Part shown: positions 6,256 through 48,287 of the stretch, one piece after another
Numbering within the stretch: the stretch's first letter is position 1
Layout: every line of letters starts with the position of its first letter
Assembly (NCBI GenBank): GCA_007120695.1
Contig: SKND01000403.1
Coordinates: 1-57,588 of the forward strand
Length of the DNA: 57,588 bases
DNA from: Bacteroidales bacterium
GTDB taxonomy: Bacteria > Bacteroidota > Bacteroidia > Bacteroidales > PUMT01
Direction of reading: 5' to 3'
Translations under genes and position numbers: made by a program
Notes under the pieces: generated by a model
Database searches by the model: none
What the model was told of the DNA's origin: nothing
The model's input: only the letters and a program-made list of their open reading frames with translations

Positions 6256-7800
6256 ATGGGTTTAAAAAGAAAGATCCTTGAATTGCACAAGAAAAGGGAA
6301 GAGGTTCTCAAAGGAGGAGGTGACAAGGCAATCGAAAAGCAAACGGCAATGGGTAAGATGACTGCCCGTGAACGTATTATTTCTCTTTGCGATACTGATT
6401 CGTTTCACGAATACGACCTTTTCGTTGAACATGAGGCAAGAGATTTTAATATGGATAAAAAGATACTTCATGGTGATGGTGTCATTATAGGCACTGGAAC
6501 CATATACGGGGCCCCGGTCTGCATATTTGCACAGGATTTTACTGTGGCCGGCGGTTCTCTGGGGATGATGCATGCGAGGAAAATAACAAAGATCATGGAT
6601 CATGCCCTTAAGATGAAGGTTCCACTGATAGGCATCAACGACTCAGGAGGAGCCAGGATACAGGAGGGAGTCAACTCACTTGCAGGTTATGGTGAGATTT
6701 TTTTCAGGAATACCTTATCTTCCGGTGTCATACCCCAGATTTCTGTAATACTGGGACCTTGTGCAGGAGGGGCGGTTTATTCTCCGGCACTGACAGACTT
6801 TGTTTTTGTTGTAGACAAGATATCAAAGATGTTCATCACGGGACCGGAAGTCATCAGGACAGTACTGGGAGAAGAGATATCGATGGAAGACCTTGGCGGC
6901 GCCAGGGTACATAGCGAAATAACAGGTAATGCCCATTTTTTTGCCAAAAGCGAAGCGGAGTGTTTTGAGCAGATTAAAAAGCTTATAACTTTCATTCCCT
7001 GGGATAACACCAGGAAAGCCTTGAAGTTTGAACCCAAAGAACCAAAACCTGAATATAACATATCAGATATTGTTCCGGGTGATCCGCGTCAGCCTTATGA
7101 TGTCAGGGATGTTATCAGGGCTATTGTTGATGACTCAGATTTTTTTGAGATCCAGGAATTGTGGGCCGCAAATATTGTTATTGGTTTTGGCAGAATGAAT
7201 GGAGATACTATTGGGTTTGTGGCAAATCAACCCCTGGTACTGGCCGGAGTTCTCGATGTTGACTCATCCGATAAGGCCGCCAGGTTTATCCGCTACTGTA
7301 ATGCTTTCAGCATACCCATAATCACCCTGGTCGACCTGCCCGGATATTTACCGGGAGTGGACCAGGAACATGCAGGAGTTATAAGGCACGGTGCAAAAGT
7401 TCTTTATGCCTACAGCGAGGCTACAGTTGCAAAAATGACGGTTATCCTCAGAAAAGCCTATGGAGGGGGATATATAGCAATGAGTTCGAGGCATCTGCGT
7501 GCCGATTTCGTATTTGCATGGCCTACTGCCGAGATTGCAGTTATGGGACCGGAAGGTGCTGCCAATATAATCTTCAGGAAAGAGATCATGGAAGCAGAGG
7601 ATCCCGATAAAATGAGAAAGCAAAAAGTTAAGGAATACAAGGAGAAGTTTGCCAATCCGTATGTTGCTGCCGCGCGCGGATATGTTGATTCGGTAATTGA
7701 GCCCGAAGAGACAAGGAAACTCCTTTTACATGCGATTGAGGTATCGGGGAACAAATCGGTATTTCTGCCACAAAAAAAACATGGTATCCCGCCTTTCTGA
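6256..7800 (+). CDS. Acyl-CoA carboxylase carboxyltransferase subunit (propionyl-CoA carboxylase beta / methylmalonyl-CoA decarboxylase alpha type)
   Basis: 514 aa with full-length resemblance to the carboxyltransferase domain family (GINDSGGARIQEG, RKAYGGGYIAM, C-terminal FANPY). Confidence 0.9.
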   Translation: MGLKRKILELHKKREEVLKGGGDKAIEKQTAMGKMTARERIISLCDTDSFHEYDLFVEHEARDFNMDKKILHGDGVIIGTGTIYGAPVCIFAQDFTVAGGSLGMMHARKITKIMDHALKMKVPLIGINDSGGARIQEGVNSLAGYGEIFFRNTLSSGVIPQISVILGPCAGGAVYSPALTDFVFVVDKISKMFITGPEVIRTVLGEEISMEDLGGARVHSEITGNAHFFAKSEAECFEQIKKLITFIPWDNTRKALKFEPKEPKPEYNISDIVPGDPRQPYDVRDVIRAIVDDSDFFEIQELWAANIVIGFGRMNGDTIGFVANQPLVLAGVLDVDSSDKAARFIRYCNAFSIPIITLVDLPGYLPGVDQEHAGVIRHGAKVLYAYSEATVAKMTVILRKAYGGGYIAMSSRHLRADFVFAWPTAEIAVMGPEGAANIIFRKEIMEAEDPDKMRKQKVKEYKEKFANPYVAAARGYVDSVIEPEETRKLLLHAIEVSGNKSVFLPQKKHGIPPF

Positions 7801-7903
7801 TAAAAGAAATTTCTGCCTGGGCATATAGCATGTGTCCCGGCAGACATGTTTCCAGATTTGGAGTTTAATATTATTTCCGGTCAAAATCATAAGTTTAGAT
7901 ATA

Positions 7904-8245
7904 ATGAAGAAGATTGATTGCGATGATAAAAAGATCAGATGTAAATCTCTGGTAATTGACGGTACTAAATACCGTACAACCCTGAACAAGAAATTCACAA
8001 ACAGAAAAGCCTGGGAAAAACCCCAGAAAAGCAGGATAATGTCATTTATCCCGGGTACCATACTTAAGATCTACGTGAAGGAGGGACAGTGTGTTAAGAA
8101 AGGTGACAACCTGCTGATTCTGGAAGCGATGAAAATGCAGAACCTGTTCAGAAGTCCTGTCGAAGGCATTATCAAATCAATCAACATGAAGGTGGGAGAA
8201 AGAGTACCCAAGGGTAAGCTGATGATTGAGATTGGCTATCAGTGA
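7904..8245 (+). CDS. Biotin carboxyl carrier protein (biotin/lipoyl attachment domain)
   Basis: Carries the biotinylation motif EAMKMQN in a C-terminal lipoyl-like domain. The start is taken at MKKIDCDD. The longer track ORF starting at 7832 adds an implausible extension. Confidence 0.85.
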   Translation: MKKIDCDDKKIRCKSLVIDGTKYRTTLNKKFTNRKAWEKPQKSRIMSFIPGTILKIYVKEGQCVKKGDNLLILEAMKMQNLFRSPVEGIIKSINMKVGERVPKGKLMIEIGYQ

Positions 8246-8251
8246 CGGCAT

Positions 8252-8287
8252 GAGCTCCCCGGTTTTACCAGGGAGCTCTGTTTTTTA
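8252..8287 (+). terminator. Rho-independent terminator after the carboxylase gene pair
   Basis: An 8-bp GC-rich stem, GAGCTCCC (8252-8259) with GGGAGCTC (8271-8278), is followed by TGTTTTTTAT. Confidence 0.8.
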
Positions 8288-8314
8288 TCCGCCTGCCGGC
8301 AGAATGAAAACCGG

Positions 8315-9280: not shown

Positions 9281-10795
9281 ATGAATAAACCTGCAAACAG
9301 CAAATTTAAACATTTTCAACCGGTTGCCGATTACGGCAAAGTGCCTCCGCAGGCAATAGAGCTTGAGGAGACTGTGCTGGGAGCGATTATGCTGGAAAAA
9401 GATGCGCTTATTGCCATTCTCGACCTTCTGAAGCCTGAAAGCTTTTACAAAGAGGCGCACCAGAAGATCTTCTCTGCAATAATGAACCTGTCAATGCAGG
9501 AAAAACCTATTGACATCCTGACGGTAACCGAAGAACTTAAAAAACAAAAAACACTTGAGTCAGTCGGTGGAGCTTTTTACATTACTCAGCTAACCAGCAG
9601 GGTTTCGTCGGCAGCACATATAGAATACCATGCCAGGATAATAGCTCAGAAATTCATCCAGAGGGAACTTATCAGGATCTCTACCGAAATACAGAATCGC
9701 TCTTATGATGAGGGGAGCGATGTGGACGACCTACTCGATTATTCGGAAACCGAGCTATTCAACATTGCAGAGGGGAATATCAAAAAAGAGACTGTCAAGA
9801 TAAATGTTCTTATCAAAGAGGCCATAAACCAGATTGAAGAGTCTGGTAAAAGAGAAGACAATCTGAGCGGCGTGCCAAGCGGTTTTACAAAAATTGACCG
9901 GATCACCTCAGGCTGGCAGAAATCGGATCTGGTCATTATTGCTGCAAGACCTTCAATGGGTAAGACGGCGCTTGTTCTCTCCATGACACGGAATATTGCA
10001 GTCGAACATAACAGGCCGGTTGCTGTCTTTTCCCTCGAAATGTCATCCTTGCAGCTCGTTAACAGGCTTATAGTAAGCGAAACAAAATTACCGTCAGAAA
10101 GGATCAGAAACGGCAAATTGCATGATTATGAATGGGAACAGCTCGAGATTAAAATCAAAAACCTGGTCGACGCACCCATATTTATTGATGATACACCCGC
10201 CATATCTATTTATGAACTCAGGGCAAAATGCAGAAGGTTGAAAAGACAGCACGATATAGAGCTGATTATCATTGACTATCTTCAATTGATGACCGGAACG
10301 CAGGATACCAGGGGAAACAGGGAACAGGAAGTATCAACAATTTCGCGGTCACTCAAAGCAATTGCAAAAGAGCTTAACGTACCTATCCTGGCACTTTCAC
10401 AGCTAAACAGGGCAGTTGAAACCAGGGGTGGCACCAAGAGGCCTCAGCTTTCAGATTTGCGCGAATCGGGTGCAATTGAACAGGATGCAGATATGGTATT
10501 GTTTATTCACAGGCCTGAATATTATGGTTTTTATGAAGATGAGGATGGCAATTCAAATATCGGCATTGCCGAAATTATTATTGCAAAGCACAGGAATGGT
10601 GCCATAGGCGATGTTAAATTGAAATTCCAGTCAGAATCAGCGAGTTTTACTGAACTTGAAGATGATCTGAGACCGATTACAGAGGATGATCTCTCCATAA
10701 CACTGGGTTCGAAGATGAATGAAGATAATGAGTTTTCGAAAGGCTTCAGCTCCAAGGGTAATGCAGATTTTGACAATGAACCTCCCCCGTTTTGA
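9281..10795 (+). CDS. dnaB: Replicative DNA helicase DnaB
   Basis: 504 aa with a DnaB N-terminal domain and a RecA-like C-terminal domain. Walker A is AARPSMGKTALVL. Also present are IIDYLQLM and SQLNRAVE. Confidence 0.95.
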   Translation: MNKPANSKFKHFQPVADYGKVPPQAIELEETVLGAIMLEKDALIAILDLLKPESFYKEAHQKIFSAIMNLSMQEKPIDILTVTEELKKQKTLESVGGAFYITQLTSRVSSAAHIEYHARIIAQKFIQRELIRISTEIQNRSYDEGSDVDDLLDYSETELFNIAEGNIKKETVKINVLIKEAINQIEESGKREDNLSGVPSGFTKIDRITSGWQKSDLVIIAARPSMGKTALVLSMTRNIAVEHNRPVAVFSLEMSSLQLVNRLIVSETKLPSERIRNGKLHDYEWEQLEIKIKNLVDAPIFIDDTPAISIYELRAKCRRLKRQHDIELIIIDYLQLMTGTQDTRGNREQEVSTISRSLKAIAKELNVPILALSQLNRAVETRGGTKRPQLSDLRESGAIEQDADMVLFIHRPEYYGFYEDEDGNSNIGIAEIIIAKHRNGAIGDVKLKFQSESASFTELEDDLRPITEDDLSITLGSKMNEDNEFSKGFSSKGNADFDNEPPPF

Positions 10796-26050: not shown

Positions 26051-26124
26051 GGCGAGGTAGCTCAGGTGGTTAGAGCGCATGATTCATAATCATGAGGTCG
26101 GGAGTTCAAGTCTCCCTCTCGCTA
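26051..26124 (+). tRNA. tRNA with a CAU anticodon (elongator tRNA-Met, or tRNA-Ile2 if lysidine-modified). CCA is not encoded.
   Basis: Hand-folded cloverleaf: acceptor GGCGAGG/TCTCGCT with two G-U pairs, D arm GCTC-AGGTGGTTA-GAGC, anticodon arm CATGA-TTCATAA-TCATG, variable loop AGGTC, and T arm GGGAG-TTCAAGT-CTCCC. The anticodon stem lacks the three G-C pairs of an initiator tRNA. Confidence 0.9.
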
Positions 26125-38938: not shown

Positions 38939-41353
38939 CTAAAACTTGATAGAAACCCCTGAAAAAAAATGCCTGCCTGCTTGAGGGAAATAGCCATCCA
39001 TATATTGTTCTACTCCCTGATAATTATAACGATAAATCCATGCGTTTGTTTCAAATTTTGCATTAAAAATATTCCCGATCATTAAATTAAATGTAAACTC
39101 TCCAAACCACGCGCTGTTCAGAACATAATTAATTCTCAGATCACTGAAAAAATACGGATCAAGCATTCTTTCCCGGCTTGAAGTATTGTCAATGAACTGC
39201 CTGTCAACATATTTACCCGAAAAGTTTACTGACATATTGTCAAGCGGTGTATAGGTAATCTCACCTCCGGCAATCAGCGGGGGAGAAAATGCAAGTTCCG
39301 TACTCCCTAAATCCCTCACAATCTGCAAAGGTTCACTTTCCGGATCATCCCAGTAATCCCAGTTATCTACATACTCGGTAAAATCTTTAATCTTGTTCTC
39401 ACTAACTGAAAGGTTCAATGCCATTTCCAGGCTTTTAGTAAGCCTTGCTCCTGCCAGCAACTCAATACCTGCACGGTAACTATCCGGAACATTTGTCATA
39501 ACGGGAGCGCCAACATCATTTATACGGCCGGTCATAACAAGTTGATCTTTATAGAGCATATAAAACAGATTGGCATTAATTCTGGTGTTTTGCGTTTTCA
39601 GGTTATATCCCGTTTCCAGGTTATTCATCCTTTCCGGTCTCGGGATTTCACCCGGTCTCGCATCCTTGAAATTACTCCTGTTGGGTTCCCTGTGGGCCAC
39701 GGCAAAAGAGAGGTAAACATTTTGCCTGTCGTCAAATTCATAGTAGACACCTGCTTTCGGGTTAAAAAAATGATACTCATGTTCCCTCGAAATATCCCTA
39801 AGGTCATCATCCCCACCGTCGATCTTATAATCTATTAAGCGGTATTGCAAATCACCATATAGATTAATATTGTCAGAAACCCTGAAATCGATCTTCCCGA
39901 AAGTGTTGAAATCCTTTTTCCTTCCCTGGTTAAAATACCATTCGTAGTTTTTTGGAATATGACCGGAATACTCTGCCCAGATAATATGACCATAATGGTC
40001 TCCAATATAATTGTTAAATGCCCCGCCCCATGTCAGGTCAAAATTTCTCCTGTTGTATTTCAGCGAATAGGTCATTCCGTAGAAATCATTATCCAGAATT
40101 TTCCTTCTGATCAGATCGCTCTCTGATATTACCACTCCTCCGATCTCAGCATCATCCAGTCCGTAATTTCTGAACCTGTGACCAGCTTTATACTGTTCGT
40201 AATAGCCATATCCCCTGGTATAATGAAACGCAGTATTAAGATGTAACCCGGACAAGAGATCCCTTGAATAGAAAAGCTGAAAATGATCCTGCTGATAGTT
40301 ATCAATCTCATTATCATAATAAACTGTTTCTCCATCCTGGTTGGTGTAGCTGCCTATCCCATTGTACCTCCGGTCTTTTTCCAGCATATATGACGGAACT
40401 CCGTCCCAGGCCTGGTAAGTAATCTCCTTTCCGGAAAATACATTTATCTTAAGAAGACTTCTTTCATTGTGCATTGCACCGGAAACAAAGAATGATTTCA
40501 GGTCGGCACTTGCCCTGTCAATATATCCGTCAGAATCGATCTTAGATAACCTTGCATCAAAGGTAAAACGGTTGTTGATCAATCCCGAGCCAACTCTTAC
40601 TGTATTCCTTAATGAATTGAATGAACCTGCAGTGGAGCTGATTTCTCCGTAGGGATCAGGATTAAGAGTTGATGTCTGAAGGTTGATACTTGCACCAAAT
40701 GCACCGGCTCCATGGGAAGAGGTACCAACTCCTCTCTGAATCTGAACATTATCCAGTGACGAAGCAAGATCCGGAAGATTTACCCAGAATACTCCATGTG
40801 ATTCAGGATCATTATAAGGTATCCCGTTTATTGTAATATTAATTCGGTTCATATCAGATCCCCGTATCCTGAAGTTTGTATACCCGATACCGGTCCCTGC
40901 GTCTGAGGATGCAACAAATGAAGGTGTAAAACTAATAATATAGGGTATGTCCTGGCCGAAATCCCGGCTTTCAATTTCAGACCGGCTAACATCCATAAAA
41001 GCAACAGGTACTTTGGAATGAGCCCGTGTTGCAGAAACAATAACCTCCTCTGCCATGAAAGAAGATCTCTCAAGTATCACATCAATCCGGGTACTGCCCT
41101 GAACGGATACTTCCTTATATACAGTTTCATAACCCATATGTGATACTCTCAGAACATAATCCCCTTCTCGCAGATTGAGACGAAATTGCCCGTTTGCATT
41201 TGTCGCTGTCCCGGCATAGGAACCTTCAACAACAATGTTTGCACCTATGAGAGGGTCGCCCTCAATGTTTTTTACCGTGCCGTTAATAAAAGTGTTTGCA
41301 AAAGATGATAAACAAATCAATTGCAATACAAGTAATCCAATTACCCGTTTCAT
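38939..41353 (-). CDS. TonB-dependent outer-membrane receptor with an N-terminal carboxypeptidase-regulatory-like domain. It is probably thiamine-related because of its riboswitch.
   Basis: 804 aa with a signal peptide, a CarboxypepD_reg-like N-terminus (GTVKNIEGDPLIGANIVVEG), a plug domain, and a long beta-barrel ending in an aromatic residue (SIKF). Confidence 0.9.
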   Translation of the reverse strand: MKRVIGLLVLQLICLSSFANTFINGTVKNIEGDPLIGANIVVEGSYAGTATNANGQFRLNLREGDYVLRVSHMGYETVYKEVSVQGSTRIDVILERSSFMAEEVIVSATRAHSKVPVAFMDVSRSEIESRDFGQDIPYIISFTPSFVASSDAGTGIGYTNFRIRGSDMNRINITINGIPYNDPESHGVFWVNLPDLASSLDNVQIQRGVGTSSHGAGAFGASINLQTSTLNPDPYGEISSTAGSFNSLRNTVRVGSGLINNRFTFDARLSKIDSDGYIDRASADLKSFFVSGAMHNERSLLKINVFSGKEITYQAWDGVPSYMLEKDRRYNGIGSYTNQDGETVYYDNEIDNYQQDHFQLFYSRDLLSGLHLNTAFHYTRGYGYYEQYKAGHRFRNYGLDDAEIGGVVISESDLIRRKILDNDFYGMTYSLKYNRRNFDLTWGGAFNNYIGDHYGHIIWAEYSGHIPKNYEWYFNQGRKKDFNTFGKIDFRVSDNINLYGDLQYRLIDYKIDGGDDDLRDISREHEYHFFNPKAGVYYEFDDRQNVYLSFAVAHREPNRSNFKDARPGEIPRPERMNNLETGYNLKTQNTRINANLFYMLYKDQLVMTGRINDVGAPVMTNVPDSYRAGIELLAGARLTKSLEMALNLSVSENKIKDFTEYVDNWDYWDDPESEPLQIVRDLGSTELAFSPPLIAGGEITYTPLDNMSVNFSGKYVDRQFIDNTSSRERMLDPYFFSDLRINYVLNSAWFGEFTFNLMIGNIFNAKFETNAWIYRYNYQGVEQYMDGYFPQAGRHFFSGVSIKF

Positions 41354-41384: not shown

Positions 41385-41481
41385 AATGAGGTGATCTGGC
41401 TTCTTTCCCTACACCGGCATTACCCGGATCAGGTTCAAAGGGTATGATCTCAGCCCGAAATATTAAGGCACCCCATTAGTG
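41385..41481 (-). promoter_or_regulatory. TPP (THI-box) riboswitch in the 5' leader of the TonB-dependent receptor
   Basis: The minus strand reads ...CACTAATGGGGTGCCTTAATATTTCGGGCTGAGATCATACCCTTTGAACCTGATCCGGGTAATGCCGGTGTAGGGAAAG... All conserved TPP aptamer blocks are present (GGGGUGC, CUGAGA, ACCC, UUGAACCUGAUC-GG-UAAUGCC-G-GUAGGGAA). The core spans 41400-41474. Confidence 0.9.
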
Positions 41482-41486
41482 TACTG

Positions 41487-42018: not shown

Positions 42019-42189
42019 ATTAAATTTTTGATAGTTAAAATATTAATAAATATTTATAGATGTAAATTTATAACAATTATAGCAAAGCACAAAAAGCATT
42101 CCAAATGCCAAAAAGAATCCTTGTACAAGTTATAACGTGATTTATTGTAATTTTGTCATATCAATTAACAATATTTGTCATATATATAT

Positions 42190-43605
42190 ATGAAGATGTA
42201 TCTGGATAAATATATTTTCACCCTCATTTCAAAAATTGCTACTGAGACCAGCACCGAATTATACGTTGTAGGAGGTTATGTTCGTGATTTAGTAATGAAC
42301 CGGCCCACCAGTGATATTGATATTGTAGTAGTAGGCGACGGGATCAAATTTGCGCAAAAGCTTGCAGTTGCAATCGGGGAAAATACAAATGTCACCGTTT
42401 TCAGGAATTTCGGAACTGCAATGCTCAGGTATGGTGAATATGAAATTGAATTTGTGGGAGCACGCAAAGAGTCATACAGAAAAGACTCCCGCAAACCGGT
42501 TGTTGAAGATGGCACCCTTCAGGAAGACCAGTTAAGAAGGGATTTTACGATAAATGCACTTGCTGTGGGACTAGGAGTTAAGAACTATGGCAAACTGATC
42601 GATCCCTTCAACGGAGTGCAGGATATAAAAAACAAGATTATCCGTACACCGGGTGATCCTGGTTTAACCTTCTCTGATGACCCCCTGCGCATGATGAGGG
42701 CAATAAGGTTTGCATCACAACTCAGATTTAAAATTGACGCACCAACTCTTGGCTCAATAAGTGAACACAGGCACCGGATTGAGATAGTATCTCAGGAGAG
42801 AATAACTGAAGAGCTCAATAAGATAGTGATGTCAGAAAAACCATCGACCGGATTTGTGCTGATGGACAAGTCAGGGCTGCTTGAAATTATTCTGCCTGAA
42901 ATTCATGCATTGAAAGGGGTTGATATAGTCAATGGTAAAATGCATAAAGACAATTTTCACCATACAATCAAGGTACTTGACAATCTCAGTAAAGAGTCGG
43001 ATGACCTATGGCTAAGGTGGGCTGCACTTTTACATGATGTGGGCAAGCCAAAAACAAAAAAATATACTGCCGGTTCAGGATGGACATTTCACGGACACGA
43101 TTTTCTTGGGGCAAAAATGGTACCCGCAATTTTCAGGAGGCTTAAGCTTCCGTTAAATGATAAAATGAAATATGTTCAGAAAATCGTAAAATTACATCTC
43201 CGGCCCATTTCACTTTCGGGAGATGAGATTACTGATTCGGCTGTAAGACGTTTGCTGTATGAGGCAGGAGATCAGATTGAGGATCTGATGACCTTGTGTG
43301 AAGCTGATATCACATCAAAAAACAGGGATACCGTTAAAAGGCATATGGGCAATTTCAGCCTGGTCCGCAGTAAACTGCAGGAAACAGAAGAGAAAGATGC
43401 TATGCGCAATTTCCAGCCACCAGTAAAGGGGGACGAGATTATGAAAATATTTAACCTCCCTCCCGGCAGGGAAGTCGGTATAATCAAGAAAGCCATAAAA
43501 GAAGCAATTCTTGATGGCCTTATAAGTAATGACAAGGGTGAAGCCCGCCGGTTTATGTTAGAAAAAGCTAAAGAGATGGGAATCGAACCTTTTACCCGGG
43601 AGTAA
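42190..43605 (+). CDS. cca: CCA-adding tRNA nucleotidyltransferase / poly(A) polymerase family protein with an HD domain
   Basis: The head domain has GGYVRD and DIDIVV. RRDFTINA is present. The HD domain has LLHDVGKP. The start is taken at ATG 42190 (MKMYLDKY). Confidence 0.88.
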   Translation: MKMYLDKYIFTLISKIATETSTELYVVGGYVRDLVMNRPTSDIDIVVVGDGIKFAQKLAVAIGENTNVTVFRNFGTAMLRYGEYEIEFVGARKESYRKDSRKPVVEDGTLQEDQLRRDFTINALAVGLGVKNYGKLIDPFNGVQDIKNKIIRTPGDPGLTFSDDPLRMMRAIRFASQLRFKIDAPTLGSISEHRHRIEIVSQERITEELNKIVMSEKPSTGFVLMDKSGLLEIILPEIHALKGVDIVNGKMHKDNFHHTIKVLDNLSKESDDLWLRWAALLHDVGKPKTKKYTAGSGWTFHGHDFLGAKMVPAIFRRLKLPLNDKMKYVQKIVKLHLRPISLSGDEITDSAVRRLLYEAGDQIEDLMTLCEADITSKNRDTVKRHMGNFSLVRSKLQETEEKDAMRNFQPPVKGDEIMKIFNLPPGREVGIIKKAIKEAILDGLISNDKGEARRFMLEKAKEMGIEPFTRE

Positions 43606-44095
43606 CAGTTGGCTGCCATTCCCTTGTTACTTCCAATATTGTTTCAGCAAAAAAAGTCCAATTAACTAAACACCTGACTTTCCATACGGATACATCCTGG
43701 TGTCATGTCAATTATAGTTTGATGTATATATAATATTTTATATCGTGATCGCAAAAACTTCAAAATCCCTGTCAGATCAAACCCTGCAGTACCTCCAGGA
43801 TTATAAGGTCACCGGAAACAAATACTTCATGGCCCAAACTGTTATAAACATAGTTAGCCGAAGGGAGTTCCTTCAACACTTAACTGGCTGAAAAGCGGAT
43901 AATGAAATGTCAGTATTAAACTCAGCAGTATTACTATCTTTAGGAGTAGATTTTTATTATTCATGGTTTAGGTGCTTTGTAATCTATGTGCATAAGATTT
44001 CATTACAGAATACCTTGTATAGAAGTCACGTATTTTCTTTTGATAACAGCCTGATATAATGATGCAGATTCCACAACCAAAGTTGCAGATCATAG

Positions 44096-44923
44096 ATGAA
44101 TGATGGCATTAATTCATGTTCTGATTTTTTGAAATGGGCGTTGCCGGAACTCAAAATGCGGCCGGAAGGATTCAGGAAAGTCCGCAAGCAGGTCTGCAAG
44201 CGTCTGTTAAAGCGCATGAGCGAATTAAACCTGCATGGTTTTGAAAGTTACAGGCGTTTTCTGCAGGATAACCCCACTGAATGGAAAGTGGCAGATGAGA
44301 TGATGCGCATAACAATTTCCAGGTTTTTCAGAGATAGAAAAACCTGGGAGGAAGTGACCGATAATCTGCTGCCGGAGATAGTACGGAAGGCAAACGGTAA
44401 ACATCCTGTAAGATGCTGGTGTGCAGGAATTGCTTCGGGCGAGGAACCCTACACTCTTGCGATTTTGTGGCGGGAAAAAATTCTCCGGCAGTTTCCAAAT
44501 GCCTCATTTGAAATTCTGGCCACCGATTCCGACCCTCATATGCTGGAAAGGGCCCGGATGGCATGTTATAACAAGGGTTCTTTCAAAGAGGCTCCGGCCG
44601 GGCTGGTAGCCAGGGCATTTCACCGCGAAGGACCGTTATGGTGCCTGGATAAGGCTTACAGGGAGATGGTCAGATTTTCCCGTCAGGATATCAGGGAAGA
44701 AATACCGGAGGGCATATTTGATCTGATTTTTTGCAAAAATATTGTTGCCATGTATTTCAATAAAGAGTCAGCCGTCAGCATATTTAAAAGGATTAGTGCC
44801 CGAATGAGGCCGGGAGCATATTTAATACTCGGAAACCATGAGGAGTTTCCGCATGATGAAGTAGGTGAAATCAGAGAATTTAACAGGGGCCTGAATATAT
44901 TCCGGAAAATTGGCAACTCGTGA
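44096..44923 (+). CDS. CheR-type SAM-dependent protein-glutamate O-methyltransferase, with no chemotaxis partner in this window
   Basis: 275 aa with CheR SAM-domain motifs: RCWCAGIASGEEPYTLAILW, ILATDSDPHMLERAR and FDLIFCKNIVAMYF. Confidence 0.85.
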   Translation: MNDGINSCSDFLKWALPELKMRPEGFRKVRKQVCKRLLKRMSELNLHGFESYRRFLQDNPTEWKVADEMMRITISRFFRDRKTWEEVTDNLLPEIVRKANGKHPVRCWCAGIASGEEPYTLAILWREKILRQFPNASFEILATDSDPHMLERARMACYNKGSFKEAPAGLVARAFHREGPLWCLDKAYREMVRFSRQDIREEIPEGIFDLIFCKNIVAMYFNKESAVSIFKRISARMRPGAYLILGNHEEFPHDEVGEIREFNRGLNIFRKIGNS

Positions 44924-45089: not shown

Positions 45090-45101
45090 CAATAGTCTCT
45101 C

Positions 45102-45418
45102 AAAAACAAAGCCGGGAGCTTTTCCTGACGAAAAAGTTCCCGGCTCACTTTTTGCGGCGAACCGCTAAAGTGTCAAGCTACTGTTATTATGACTGACCTC
45201 TGATGGCATCTCCCGGAGGATTTGCCGCGAAGGTCCGAACCTTGTTACGATCAGCTTTTTACGGCCGAATTTCACGCTGGCTCCCGTTCCTGTTATGCGG
45301 TCTGAAGTTCCTCCCGAAGGATTTTCTCCGTTTGACCTTACTGAAACATATTAACCCGAAGATTTTTTCTGTTCCAGCTTAACATCTCAAAGAACAAGTC
45401 TTTTATCCCTCACTTGAT
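45102..45418 (-). ncRNA. Candidate ~315-nt structured, UUCG-rich small RNA of unknown family
   Basis: It is bracketed by a promoter (45423-45455) and a terminator: a 13-bp stem, 45110-45123 with 45132-45145, followed by TTTGTTTTTG on the minus strand. No ORF exceeds 15 codons. There are seven TTCG tetranucleotides, several closing hairpins (AAUC-UUCG-GGUU, UCC-UUCG-GGA, GCGG-UUCG-CCGC, AAGGU-UCGG-ACCUU). Nested helices are CUGGAACA/UGUUUCAG and CACUUU/AAAGUG. Confidence 0.5.
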
Positions 45419-45422
45419 GAAA

Positions 45423-45455
45423 CAAATATAGTATGAAATACCATTCGGCTCCAAA
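45423..45455 (-). promoter_or_regulatory. Bacteroidota-type promoter (-33 TTTG, 21-nt spacer, -7 TATATTTG) for the candidate sRNA
   Basis: On the minus strand, TTTG lies at 45455-45452 and TATATTTG at 45430-45423. The spacing falls in the 19-21 nt range described for Bacteroides sigma-A promoters. Confidence 0.5.
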
Positions 45456-45702
45456 TTTTTTCGCATCTCTGTATCCACAAGAAAACAACAGGGGTTATCA
45501 ACATTTTGTTAATTCAGCCATATTACTACTGATTAGTAACTTATACTGGAATTAGAGATAAAACCATGTCTGTTATCAACAAAATGCTTTTAAGCTCATA
45601 TAAGGTTATTAACACGCAGCATGACATATTACCCGCCTGGTTGTATTCCACTCCTGAGTTCTCTCCCCTTGCCAAGGCAGGGTAAAAGACCTATTGAAAG
45701 CT

Positions 45703-46785
45703 TCAATACAAAAGATCCAGAACTACAGGGAAATGGTCGCTAAACCCGCCGGTATGCCTGAACCCTTCATAAGTCCGGAATGGTTTATGACCAAACCAGC
45801 TTTCATCAGGCACCATCAGAAACCCGGCTGAAAAAATTTTTACATCTTTGAGAGAAGTTTGTACCCCTGCTGCCCCATTCAGCAGGGTTCCTGAAACTAT
45901 AAACTGGTCAAAGAGGTACCACGTACCCTGGAATTTAAGACTGCCATGACCATTCTCTTTGAGATAGCCCGAAATATTATACAATATTCCCTGTTCGGGA
46001 TTACCATAATCCTGTTCAGCGCCGAGAGATTTGCTCAAACTTATATCATCCGGTTCATCATTAAAATCCCCCATTATAACGATATTCGCACCAGGATATG
46101 CCATAAAGATTGAATCGGTCATAGAACGCAATAATGAAGCTGTATAGATCCGGTGAGGTTCAGTTGCCGCCTGCCCTCCCCACCTGGAAGGCCAGTGATT
46201 AACAAAAACGTGCAGGGTGTCACCCGGAGGACAAACCCCTTTAAGGTAAACAATATCCCTTGTGCCATTAGTCGTGTCAAACGGGAAATTTATTTCAATG
46301 AATTTGGTGTCGAGAAGCATGAAATCGACTGAACGATAAAGTACAGCAACATCAATACCCCGCCGGTCTGCCGAATTTCTATGTATAATACTGTATTCAG
46401 ACTTTTTAAGCCCTGTTTCATAAGCAAGCATCTCAAGTACATGCCTGTTCTCAACCTCACACAAACCGATAATAGCAGGAGTTTCCCATTCACCTGCAGC
46501 AACAATTGCCTTATAAAGATTATTCACCTTTTTTTTAAGCCGGTACCAGTTCCAGCGCCTGTCTCCATCAGGTGTAAAGGCATCATCATCCTTATCAGGG
46601 TTATTTTCAGTATCAAAAAGATTCTCTACATTATAAAAAACAATACGAAAAACAGATTCTGAAGACCCGGAGAAACCAAACAGATTTGTTTCTGTGGTAA
46701 AAAGGGTAAAAACCAATATCAGAAATAAAGAGATGCGCCTTACCATAACTGAAATTGATATTTTTTTTACTGTCGTCATCTGCAT
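45703..46785 (-). CDS. Endonuclease/exonuclease/phosphatase (EEP) family protein, secreted
   Basis: 360 aa with a signal or anchor segment, the N-terminal motif FRIVFYNVENLFD, and C-terminal motifs GDFND and SDHFPV. Confidence 0.85.
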   Translation of the reverse strand: MQMTTVKKISISVMVRRISLFLILVFTLFTTETNLFGFSGSSESVFRIVFYNVENLFDTENNPDKDDDAFTPDGDRRWNWYRLKKKVNNLYKAIVAAGEWETPAIIGLCEVENRHVLEMLAYETGLKKSEYSIIHRNSADRRGIDVAVLYRSVDFMLLDTKFIEINFPFDTTNGTRDIVYLKGVCPPGDTLHVFVNHWPSRWGGQAATEPHRIYTASLLRSMTDSIFMAYPGANIVIMGDFNDEPDDISLSKSLGAEQDYGNPEQGILYNISGYLKENGHGSLKFQGTWYLFDQFIVSGTLLNGAAGVQTSLKDVKIFSAGFLMVPDESWFGHKPFRTYEGFRHTGGFSDHFPVVLDLLY

Positions 46786-46859: not shown

Positions 46860-48287
46860 TTACTCTTCCTCCTCCTCTTCCTTATACCATTCATAAGCGC
46901 CAATATCGGGTGCACTATCTGATACCCTTAAATTACCATCAAGATCAAGAGGATGAAGAGCTCCAATTTCCGGATCTCCGGCATCAATAAGAACAGAACC
47001 GGACTCCGGCCTGAAGTTAAAGGATGACGGACTGGTAAAACCCGGACTGAATCCGTAAATACAATTCAGGAAAATGTCACTGTTTGCCGATGCGAATGAA
47101 TCATCAATTCCAAGTAATGAGTGGCTGAATAACACATCAAACCGCTCGTCTCTTTGGGGCAGAAATCTGATCTCCTGGTTTAATGAGCCATGAATTATGC
47201 TGTTGCCAAACAACACCCTGATGGGTGCTTGCCCTGAAGACCCGGTCTCTGTATGATTTTGAATAATGACCGATGGGGTTCGCCTGGATGAAAAGTTCCA
47301 GTAGTTGGCAAAAGTGGAGTGGTAAAAAGTGTAGTCGCCTGCCCCGGAAAGTACAATGGTATGGTGCCCGCAATTAGCAATGACAGTATTATATGAATAT
47401 ACCACTGCCTCTCTTGCATATAAACCCGCATATGTCATATTCTCAATACGGCTGTTAGCAAGGTAGAGGGTAGTGTCACCTGGTGAAGCAAGTGAATCGG
47501 CAATAATACCATTAACCCCGTTTCTTACCGAGGTATGCACAATCCTGTTTCCTGTGCTGCCCGGCATAAGCCACACCCCCTCCCACTGACCGGGAATATT
47601 CCTGTATCCTGATTCTGTGCGGGCTCCCTGGAAAATTACAGGCTCTTCGGGAGTTCCGAAAACCAGAATAGTGCCGGCCACAAAAAGCCCTGACCCGGGT
47701 TGAAAATGGATACGTACTCCGGGTTCAACACTTAATACCTGGCCGGAATCAACCATCATAAAATCATAAACAAGATATGGCTTCCCGGACTCAAGTATAC
47801 CTGATGTGAATTTCTCCCCTCTGATAATATTCACATCCTGACCCCATGCTACCAGTTTCACATTCTGAATATTCCCGTTGGTAATAAATACAACTGAATC
47901 CTTAACAACCATTGGCAGATTACCTTCAACCGGATCAATTGTAGCCTCCACAAAAACATACAGGCTGTCGCCTCCATGAAGTATAATATCGTCAAATCTG
48001 TGGCCCGGTATACCGTCAACGTTAATCCGGTAGGGTGACTCCGTAGCACCGGCCAGGGAGATACTTTTTATTTCAAGACTTTTGTCATAGGGATTATAAA
48101 CCTTAAAATGCCTCGTGGCTGTACCAATAGAGGTAAAAACAGTATCAAACAGCAGGGTATCCGATGAAAAGAGCAACTTTGCCGACGGATCTTTTGTGAA
48201 AGGCTCCTTGTCGCAGGAAACTAAAGCCAGTCCGCCAAAAAGCATTTTGGCAGCTAGTAGAATATAAATACCCGGTTTTATTTTCAT
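46860..48287 (-). CDS. Lipoprotein with a predicted right-handed beta-helix region and a C-terminal poly-Glu tail
   Basis: 475 aa with a lipobox (LALVSC). The sequence is Gly/Asn/Ser-rich and repetitive, consistent with a pectin-lyase-like fold. It ends in YEWYKEEEEEE. Confidence 0.65.
   Translation of the reverse strand: MKIKPGIYILLAAKMLFGGLALVSCDKEPFTKDPSAKLLFSSDTLLFDTVFTSIGTATRHFKVYNPYDKSLEIKSISLAGATESPYRINVDGIPGHRFDDIILHGGDSLYVFVEATIDPVEGNLPMVVKDSVVFITNGNIQNVKLVAWGQDVNIIRGEKFTSGILESGKPYLVYDFMMVDSGQVLSVEPGVRIHFQPGSGLFVAGTILVFGTPEEPVIFQGARTESGYRNIPGQWEGVWLMPGSTGNRIVHTSVRNGVNGIIADSLASPGDTTLYLANSRIENMTYAGLYAREAVVYSYNTVIANCGHHTIVLSGAGDYTFYHSTFANYWNFSSRRTPSVIIQNHTETGSSGQAPIRVLFGNSIIHGSLNQEIRFLPQRDERFDVLFSHSLLGIDDSFASANSDIFLNCIYGFSPGFTSPSSFNFRPESGSVLIDAGDPEIGALHPLDLDGNLRVSDSAPDIGAYEWYKEEEEEE

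Follow-up and report, generated by a model that had tools for sequence, protein, structure and literature searches.

The minus strand of a 57,588-nucleotide (nt) contig from a Bacteroidales bacterium (SKND01000403.1, assembly GCA_007120695.1; this whole stretch is called the window below) carries a predicted structured noncoding RNA (ncRNA) downstream from an EEP (Exo_endo_phos_3) nuclease gene (45703–46785) on the same strand. On its other side, the RNA gene converges with cheR (44096–44923), beyond which lies the gene for the CCA-adding enzyme (cca, 42175–43605). The window is ∼99.5% identical to contigs of metagenome-assembled genomes (MAGs) from soda-lake sediment (GCA_007127915.1 and GCA_003564495.1). 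Between 44900 and 45700, the minus strand holds a promoter, then a noncoding stretch of ∼317 nt (45418 to ∼45102), and then an intrinsic terminator.

45452–45455, minus strand: −33 promoter element TTTG, unvarying in the alignment of window-type sequences (alignment A2)
45423–45430, minus strand: −7 promoter element TATATTTG (TAnnTTTG), read from the sequence and the alignment
45102–45418, minus strand: predicted transcript, a structured ncRNA of ∼317 nt, with conservation running from the promoter to just past the U-tract
45101–45145, minus strand: intrinsic terminator, a stem of 14–16 base pairs (bp) followed by UUUGUUUUUG, supported by sequence, prediction, and helix 14 of the alignment

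Bacteroides-type promoters have the −33/−7 consensus TTTG...TAnnTTTG, which the window elements match. The spacer from TTTG to TATATTTG is 21 nt on the minus strand, and AUCAAGUG... begins four nt past TATATTTG, from 45418. An original prediction made from the letters of this DNA had described the same promoter and spacer, and both elements were found in place at 45455–45452 and 45430–45423. It had also described a GC-rich terminator hairpin of 13 bp. The stem-loop (45145–45110) is indeed GC-rich and is followed by UUUGUUUUUG, which ends at 45101, but the stem comprises 14–16 pairs with one mismatch rather than exactly 13. The statement that the segment has no open reading frame (ORF) above 15 codons holds for ATG starts and fails for GTG starts. 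Apart from a 36-codon GTG ORF (45275–45165), no ORF on this strand is noteworthy, and a coding role for this one was rejected because stop codons or frameshifts disrupt it in nine of the 16 homologs aligned with the window.

The tetranucleotide TTCG occurs seven times on the minus strand of the segment, compared to one copy of CGAA. The count of seven had been set against an expectation of about one, and the window-wide rate gives 0.87; dinucleotide-preserving shuffles give a higher 2.8 ± 1.4, with P(≥7) = 0.009. When both strands were checked, six or more copies of TTCG per 350 nt were found at this place only in the 57.6 kb. Folding z-scores relative to shuffled sequences are −3.1 (minus strand) and −2.2 (plus strand).

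Fold of the RNA and its conservation

Homologs were collected by synteny, by fetching the contigs of EEP homologs with 63–71% identity. On each of these contigs, the RNA lies downstream from the EEP gene and ahead of cca, usually without cheR. Matches of the RNA to these relatives have nhmmer E-values of ∼1e-54 to 1e-131. Identity to the window is 79–87% in the RNA, 62–71% upstream, and 56–62% downstream from the terminator, and the conserved region of the window-type alignment opens at the promoter and ends past the U-tract. Synteny is kept even though the EEP protein has diverged to as low as 63% identity. Because the relatives usually lack cheR, this gene is a lineage-specific insertion beyond the terminator, and the RNA is not its cargo. 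Co-occurrence of homologs with cheR had been named as a point to check, and in the relatives it is mostly absent, with EEP and cca kept around the RNA.

A consensus structure was computed with RNAalifold for seven and then 17 window-type sequences aligned with MAFFT, and the two runs yielded the same architecture. Stem P1 closes the whole body, which contains an internal loop, P2, P3, the hairpins P4 and P5, and the two-tier domains P6 and P7. Beyond P1 lie hairpin P8 and the terminator. The elements, all on the minus strand, are as follows.

45412–45417, minus strand: P1 5′ strand, UCAAGU, at the extreme 5′ end of the RNA; pairs with 45178–45173
45173–45178, minus strand: P1 3′ strand, GCUUGA, from the alignments
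45401–45411, minus strand: internal loop 5′ strand, GAGGGAUAAAA (family consensus RAGNGAUAAMR), near-invariant and unchanged in sequences selected on the 3′ motif only
45179–45190, minus strand: internal loop 3′ strand, AUAAUAACAGUA (family consensus RNAAUAACNGUA), from position-wise counts
45397–45400, minus strand: P2 5′ strand, GACU; pairs with 45194–45191
45191–45194, minus strand: P2 3′ strand, AGUC, from the alignment and family counts
45382–45396, minus strand: P3 5′ strand, UGUUC-U-UUG-AG-AUGU; pairs with 45298–45285
45285–45298, minus strand: P3 3′ strand, GCAU-AA-CAG-GAACG, from the alignment
45340–45378, minus strand: P4 hairpin, GCUGGAACA...UGUUUCAGU, with a UUCG loop at 45360–45357 and compensatory changes
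45299–45337, minus strand: P5 hairpin, GGUC...GACC, with the tip UCC-UUCG-GGA (loop 45318–45315) and a U-A to C-G exchange in its closing stem
45237–45283, minus strand: P6 domain, GAGCC/GGUUC closing GU/AC and then the hairpin UUCGGC-CGUAAAAA-GCUGAU; five of five closing pairs changed on both sides
45195–45235, minus strand: P7 domain, GGACCUU/GAGGUC closing GGCA...UGCC, with a UCCG loop at 45217–45214; four of six outer pairs changed on both sides
45146–45172, minus strand: P8 hairpin, CACUUU-A-GCGG-UUCG-CCGC-AAAAAGUG, with a UUCG loop at 45161–45158; helices 12 and 13 of the alignment

In the 17-sequence alignment, on which pairs were counted, standard pairs are formed in 98.2% of cells. 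Changes on both sides are seen at 20 pairs, whereas column shuffles give 8.2 ± 1.8 and none of 500 shuffles reached 20. The covariation score is 0.202, versus 0.141. When the 3′ partners were slid by one to three columns, 33–50% of the cells paired and at most 10 pairs had changes on both sides. The best covariation support is for P6 and P7. P1 and largely P3 do not vary among the 17 sequences, so that they are compatible with the fold but covariation is no test of them; for P3, 96.6% of cells are paired and the helix scarcely varies. Compensatory change among homologs had been named as the check on the proposed helices, and these 17 sequences provide it.

G·U pairs account for 12.2% of the paired cells. 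Read from the opposite strand these would become A·C, leaving 13.6% of cells unpaired. Such strand-specific G·U pairs fix the minus strand as the transcribed one, in agreement with the strand preference first drawn from the asymmetry of TTCG and CGAA.

Most helices of the original prediction survive in this structure. The nested helices CUGGAACA/UGUUUCAG, CACUUU/AAAGUG, and GGCA/UGCC are all retained in homologs; the last of these is the inner helix of P7, which is present in the seven-sequence fold and whose UCCG cap is of the UNCG class. Three of the four proposed UUCG hairpins are conserved as the tips of P4, P5, and P8. The fourth, AAGGU-UCGG-ACCUU, is not, since GGUUC forms the 3′ strand of P6 and GGACCUU forms the 5′ strand of P7, and the hairpin fails in two relatives (L008 and L011).

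These data make it highly probable that the segment is a genuine, independent structured RNA gene. Conservation, covariation, G·U pairs, and the Rfam searches described below all uphold the proposal of a discrete minus-strand RNA that runs from promoter to terminator and has no known family, and the suggestion that it could be a stand-alone RNA is likewise supported. As read from the DNA, the locus is the chromosomal gene of a predicted ∼317-nt RNA with a consensus Bacteroidota sigma-A-type promoter and its own terminator, and we infer that this RNA is expressed.

The wider family and its bipartite core

Two pattern scans reveal that the RNA belongs to a family of at least 114 unique instances in genomes and metagenomes of Bacteroidales and Cytophagales. 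In the first scan, one genome per GTDB species was examined with the invariant 3′ block GTCATAATAACNGTANCTTGA as the pattern. The 26 resulting loci come from Bacteroidales MAGs, hot-spring "Bacteroides sp." MAGs, Cyclobacteriaceae (including YHN15), Cecembia, Roseivirga, and Fulvivirga. At every locus that has its 5′ region, ATCAAGTRAGNGATAAMRGRY is located 147–348 nt upstream of the 3′ motif; L035, where the 3′ motif lies at the contig start, was left out of this statement. Even at loci with unrelated intervening sequence, a UNCG-capped hairpin and a terminator follow downstream.

The second scan, in which metagenome contigs were searched with the 5′ block, gave at least 119 loci. About 80 of those listed have the 3′ block GYCRNAAUAACNGUARCUUGR 123–650 nt downstream, and the others listed are mostly chance-like matches in coding DNA. 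At four loci (L053, L067, L075, and L137), the 5′ motif stands behind a plausible promoter without a 3′ motif within 900 nt. These may be longer or more divergent members that fall outside the motif definition.

All members share the same frame, with AUCAAGURAGNGAUAAMRGRY at the transcript start, the 3′ block farther along, and then a hairpin and terminator. In the window, these parts are AUCAAGUGAGGGAUAAAAGAC (45418–45398), GUCAUAAUAACAGUAGCUUGA (45193–45173), and P8 with the terminator after it. A hairpin with a UNCG-type cap occupies the P8 position in all family members inspected. The core is formed when UCAAGU, at the start of the transcript, pairs with RCUUGR ∼240 nt downstream to give P1, beyond which come a near-invariant asymmetric internal loop and then a covarying P2. 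It encloses a variable multihelix domain whose hairpins are capped by UNCG or GNRA tetraloops. This domain spans ∼100–630 nt, and total length is ∼250–750 nt, among the matches listed. The middle parts of the listed instances form ∼37 groups between which BLAST finds no alignment.

P1 is compatible with pairing in 98%–100% of the 114 listed instances, where the only changes are from U-A to U·G, which is not true covariation and is subject to ascertainment bias. In contrast, P2 covaries across the listed family (GAC/GUC, GGC/GCC, GGU/ACC), and among these 114, 42 have A-U as the middle pair, 33 have G-C, and 28 have G·U. Position-wise counts show that the loop strands RAGNGAUAAMR and RNAAUAACNGUA are almost invariant, and each core block is also invariant in sequences that were picked by the other block alone. 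About 20 loop nucleotides are identical between Bacteroidales and Cytophagales, and ∼40 near-invariant nucleotides are common to the two orders.

Within the loop, the G, U, and A of a GUA sequence are each 98%–100% conserved and the A opposite is invariant. The arrangement of GUA opposite (G/A)A beside P1 would fit a bulged-G module of the sarcin-ricin/loop E (S-turn) type. A kink-turn was also considered and rejected, as the nonbulged strand beside P1 reads UA, not GA. Family counts revealed no Watson–Crick covariation between the variable loop positions (5′ N11 with 3′ N14; 5′ R18 with 3′ N7).

The variable domain of some Cytophagales-type members consists of one to four copies of a three-way-junction module of ∼55 nt, GCRYRAARG-hairpin-UGARA-SGG(loop)CCS-CAGAAGUGC (also seen as ...UGARA-[SGG-loop-CCS]-CAGAAG...). 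Repeats of this module are found in L069 (∼7700–8300), L114, L059, and L154, and single copies are found in L016, L031, L040, L072, and others. P6 of the window RNA (GUGAAA-hairpin-CGUAAC) may be a distant relative of the module.

The promoter is a family feature as well. Of 102 unique promoters, 84 have a TAnnTTT(G/A) box whose first base is at −12 or −13 relative to the A of AUCAAG, and 69 of these 84 have TTG 23–24 nt upstream of the −7 box. This fixed distance means that transcription very probably starts at the first base of P1 or within one nucleotide of it.

Neither the window RNA nor its relatives match a known family. Rfam 15 holds 4227 models, including those for RNase P, transfer-messenger RNA (tmRNA), signal recognition particle (SRP) RNA, 6S, 6S-Flavo, Bacteroidales-1, OLE, ROOL, GOLLD, raiA, HEARO, Y RNA, and riboswitches. 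A cmscan of the whole window at gathering thresholds, a search proposed at the outset, returned only tRNA-Met (26051–26124) and a TPP riboswitch (41389–41485), with no significant match at the RNA, and in the RNA region a cutoff of E ≤ 10 added only two spurious weak matches. The same models found nothing at the RNA in 22 related loci, very divergent members included. ARAGORN detected no tmRNA in the window, only the tRNA-Met at 26051. The original judgment that this RNA is not RNase P, tmRNA, SRP RNA, or a riboswitch thus stands. Full-text literature searches with the family motifs, written as DNA and as RNA, and with topic words returned nothing relevant. The family is therefore new in sequence and structure to Rfam 15 and the searchable literature, although as a kind it resembles known conserved-core and orphan large ncRNAs.

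The upstream array and the genomic setting

A second conserved feature is located upstream of the promoter, where 9-mers are arranged at set distances from the 5′ end of the RNA.

45606–45614, minus strand: 9-mer TGTTAATAA at −196, a distal candidate operator site; exact match that recurs in window-type relatives
45573–45581, minus strand: 9-mer TGTTGATAA at −163; match, also in window-type relatives
45495–45515, minus strand: inverted pair AATTAACAA-AA-TGTTGATAA at −97/−85, the core of the array; the −85 ± 1 site is found across subfamilies
45471–45490, minus strand: TGTTGTTTT (−72, weak) and TGTGGATAC (−61), the proximal sites with 12-nt phasing, from positional counts

Among 100 unique promoters, a site lies at −85 ± 1 in 64, at −61 ± 1 in 57, and at −72 ± 1 in 29, with the inverted copy at −97; the −163 and −196 sites belong to the window clade. 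Heptamers of TGTTAATAA and TGTTGATAA are enriched upstream of the RNA, with GTTAATA present in 52 of 98 upstream regions versus two downstream controls. At least one site is found in 88 of 96 upstream regions (mean 2.76), compared to 29 of 75 downstream controls (mean 0.48). Three of the five exact matches to TGTTRATAA in the 57.6-kb window fall within 45495–45614. The consensus DnaA box is TTATNCACA, and its reverse complement, TGTGNATAA, stands at these positions in several members of the Cytophagales type. The array is conserved across RNA subfamilies whose transcribed middles cannot be aligned.

Short forms of the RNA, with a motif distance of at most 170 nt, differ in this region. The palindrome ATGA-N6-TCAT is present at −48 or −70 in nine of 15 short forms, versus none of 92 longer forms, which suggests a different regulator in the lineages concerned. 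The carriers of the palindrome (L030, L049, L071, L081, L091, L098, L109, L122, and L151) lack the 9-mer array, and the palindrome is near or over their −33 region.

Duplicate RNA genes occur in tandem or nearby on five contigs (L011, L027, L040, L102, and L144), and each copy has its own promoter and array. The copies are at 9663–9980 and 10435–10754 in L011, 3.2 kb apart in L027, and at 568 and 1403 in L040. Two MAGs (SLKJ01 and CAYQXY01) each have copies on two contigs. The window RNA is single-copy within the window.

Clustering of the ORFs that flank the RNA in 112 contexts uncovered synteny within clades only, with no neighbor common to the whole family. Neighbors that are stable within clades include EEP/cca, a beta-lactamase-fold protein, SRAP, ClpS, NUDIX, DnaG, and TonB-dependent receptors. 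In three relatives (L008, L012, and L014), both cheR and the ∼490-nt noncoding stretch before it (43606–44095 in the window) are missing, and the RNA terminator faces cca directly. Insertions around the RNA in L011 and L026 consist of a glycoside-hydrolase-like gene or a polysaccharide lyase gene. The RNA is retained while neighboring genes turn over.

Several other features of these contigs were observed. A gene on the minus strand at 46860–48287 encodes a 475-amino-acid (aa) protein for which Pfam gives no significant domain, just a faint match to Beta_helix; this gene is always immediately upstream of the EEP gene in the window clade, and the two probably form a conserved unit. L038 (PWYM01000269.1) carries a Gammaproteobacteria MAG label and yet has a Bacteroidales-type EEP gene and a window-type RNA, and is probably misbinned. 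The TPP riboswitch at 41389–41485 (minus strand, 57.6 bits, above the gathering score) is directly upstream of an 804-aa ORF (38939–41353, minus strand), and relatives have a TonB-dependent receptor gene (CarboxypepD_reg/Plug/TonB barrel) at this position. The 804-aa ORF probably encodes a thiamine-regulated outer-membrane importer.

Possible function and comparison with known systems

A model that would account for these features is that the RNA acts in trans as a folded RNA–protein particle or as a protein-sequestering RNA made from a regulated promoter. The invariant core would be the docking site of a conserved cellular factor, and the peripheral helices would provide a rigid scaffold that is free to vary. 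A DNA-binding protein on the phased 9-mers (−61 to −97, plus −163 and −196 in the window clade) would control synthesis of the RNA. We assign this full model, with both the docking RNA and the regulated promoter, a probability of roughly 45%. One argument for it is the nature of the core, which cannot be read as ordinary helices and is invariant across orders, whereas the periphery is free to vary and to duplicate modules. This pattern favors a conserved macromolecule, most simply a protein, over variable mRNA targets. The lack of a family-wide neighbor and the convergent orientation of the next gene in the window suggest that the RNA is trans-acting and stands alone. The array suggests that a DNA-binding protein regulates the promoter, with DnaA offering the closest resemblance.

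Some observations weigh against this model. The A-rich loop strands could alternatively serve as base-pairing seeds. The invariance of P1 and the internal loop lies beyond the reach of covariation and was partly imposed by the search patterns, and the S-turn is assigned from a sequence pattern only. No protein partner emerged from the gene neighborhoods of the 112 contexts, and none of the linked genes is for RNA binding or RNA processing. Bacteroidales-type sites (TGTTRATAA) are one position off the DnaA-box consensus, such that the connection to DnaA is one of resemblance only. Finally, some read-through from the EEP gene is possible, as the interval between that gene and the RNA promoter has no predicted terminator.

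A more specific form of the model would have the RNA turned on or off by DnaA bound to the array (−61 to −97), with the core docking a conserved factor, possibly as feedback on replication or the cell cycle. This version would be quite improbable on present grounds.

Base pairing with mRNAs is an unlikely function for the RNA, but it has several points in its favor. The A-rich single strands GAUAAAAG, AUAAUAAC, and CGUAAAAAGC might act as seeds on A-rich initiation regions and thereby alter translation or stability. Bacteroidota mRNAs have A-rich translation-initiation regions without Shine-Dalgarno sequences, and the conserved segments of the RNA are predicted to be unpaired. The gene also stands alone with its own promoter and terminator, and paralogous tandem copies like those noted above occur in many families of small RNAs (sRNAs). 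However, typical sRNAs of the seed type are much smaller than ∼320 nt (250–750 nt in the family) and much less tightly folded, and the invariant nucleotides of this RNA are in an internal loop clamped between two helices. Invariance across orders would moreover demand equally invariant targets.

An RNA with chemistry of its own, either a ribozyme (self-processing or acting in trans) or a ligand sensor acting in trans with the internal loop as its pocket, is improbable. Ribozyme and aptamer cores typically show this level of nucleotide invariance in a loop between covarying helices, and the peripheral domains of the RNA vary freely. In contrast, the ribozyme and riboswitch models of Rfam 15 give no match, no conserved processing-site signature is apparent, and there is no downstream gene for cis control. 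A riboswitch or cis-acting leader was rejected on the last point, because the next gene is convergent (cheR in the window, cca in relatives) and no downstream gene family recurs across clades.

A 6S-like RNA is very unlikely. Such an RNA would use a loop resembling an open promoter to bind the unusual sigma-A holoenzyme of Bacteroidota RNA polymerase, which would be a specific form of protein docking. 6S and 6S-Flavo RNAs are abundant and act by binding RNA polymerase. The window RNA would share with them a housekeeping-type character and the pairing of 5′ and 3′ ends around a conserved internal loop, which at ∼11 × 12 nt is large and flanked by helices. Its consensus promoter would support abundant expression, and the two copies in some genomes recall Bacillus 6S-1 and 6S-2. 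Nevertheless, RF00013 and RF01685 do not match even at permissive thresholds, and the loop is unlike TAnnTTTG. Membership in the 6S class was rejected on structure, since the fold is a multihelix junction with a P1 of only 6 bp, an extra 3′ hairpin plus terminator, and a variable length of ∼250–750 nt, as opposed to a rod of ∼180–200 nt.

It is scarcely credible that the locus is a DNA-level element, such as an origin of replication (oriC) or a DnaA-titrating site, for which conservation of the RNA is incidental or serves origin activation only. The phased 9-mers are equal or close to the DnaA-box consensus TGTGNATAA, and in Bacteroidetes oriC is reported to lie far from dnaA (PMC4755523), which counts for this reading. 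As a candidate DnaA-box cluster, the TGTKNATAA array is phased, keeps a fixed distance to the promoter, and has been duplicated along with the RNA gene; the tie to the promoter and the separate arrays of tandem and duplicate copies weigh against the origin reading. To separate the coding-strand component, replication skew was taken as the mean of the skews of plus-strand and minus-strand genes. Its values left (−0.027) and right (−0.026) of the locus have the same sign. No dnaA signature was found in the 1.13 Mb of fetched loci, and oriC was rejected on the basis of this result, the skew, and the duplicates. Compensatory changes and strand-specific G·U pairs reveal selection on the RNA fold.

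A mobile-element end or cargo, or a 3′ untranslated region (UTR) of the EEP gene, is extremely unlikely: the 780-nt intergenic region is unusually long, the adjoining cheR is lineage-specific, and a terminator after the EEP gene was not predicted, but the RNA is single-copy in the window, has no transposase-like ORF or Pfam match nearby, gave no match in scans of viral contigs and phage and plasmid collections, keeps a clade-specific, vertically conserved synteny with the diverging EEP gene, and in other clades retains its promoter behind an entirely different upstream gene. The proposed IS630 remnant alongside it was not substantiated, as Pfam searches of all small flanking ORFs were empty and repeats were weak and at chance level.

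Gut, soil, marine, and sediment communities all have Bacteroidota among their major members, and the RNA biology of this phylum is poorly charted, with unusual promoters and translation initiation. Bacteroidota are not known to have Hfq, ProQ, or CsrA. A near-invariant core combined with a modular body and a conserved array suggests that the RNA serves a conserved cellular process, and none of the known housekeeping RNAs accounts for the family. Because it is defined by core motifs, fold, promoter, and carriers, the family is directly testable and supplies a model that Rfam-style annotation is missing; its carriers include Cyclobacteriaceae bacterium YHN15 and MAGs assigned to Cecembia, Roseivirga, and Fulvivirga. 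If the upstream sites were DnaA boxes, the RNA would connect the control of replication with a function carried out by RNA, and such a replication-coupled structured-RNA circuit would have no described counterpart.

Among known systems, datA of Escherichia coli, the DnaA-box clusters of Bacillus subtilis, and dnaA promoters likewise have 9-mers equal or close to TTATNCACA with fixed orientation and phasing upstream of a promoter. The array described here differs in that it precedes an ncRNA gene and, in the Bacteroidales type, reads TTATYAACA, with DnaA a candidate binder by resemblance; short-form members have the palindrome ATGA-N6-TCAT instead.

CsrB and RsmZ resemble the family in having their own promoter and terminator, many short hairpins, and paralogous copies, and some clades of the family have one to four module repeats. 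A sponge of this type was rejected, since the loops of the window RNA are UUCG, UCCG, and CGUAAAAA, and those of relatives are GNRA or UNCG stability loops, not repeated GGA. The conserved part is also a single core rather than a set of repeats, and CsrA is not known as a feature of Bacteroidota.

The Bacteroidales-1 motif is an ncRNA candidate from the same phylum that, like the window RNA, is bounded by a TTTG/TAnnTTTG promoter and an intrinsic terminator. It typically occurs downstream from the gene for ribosomal protein L20, a context different from that of the window RNA. This motif (RF01693) appears in a table of PMC2864571. Its covariance model does not match at the window RNA, even at E ≤ 10.

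The closest likeness in kind is to OLE, raiA, ROOL, and GOLLD. These are also stand-alone, highly structured RNAs with many covarying helices and a near-invariant block of nucleotides, their functions are not evident from gene context, and many of their carriers come from extreme or sedimentary habitats. The window family matches none of them in sequence or structure and resides in another phylum, the Bacteroidota. It is further set apart by a unique bipartite core, formed between the 5′ end and a distal 3′ segment, that encloses a hypervariable domain of 100–630 nt.

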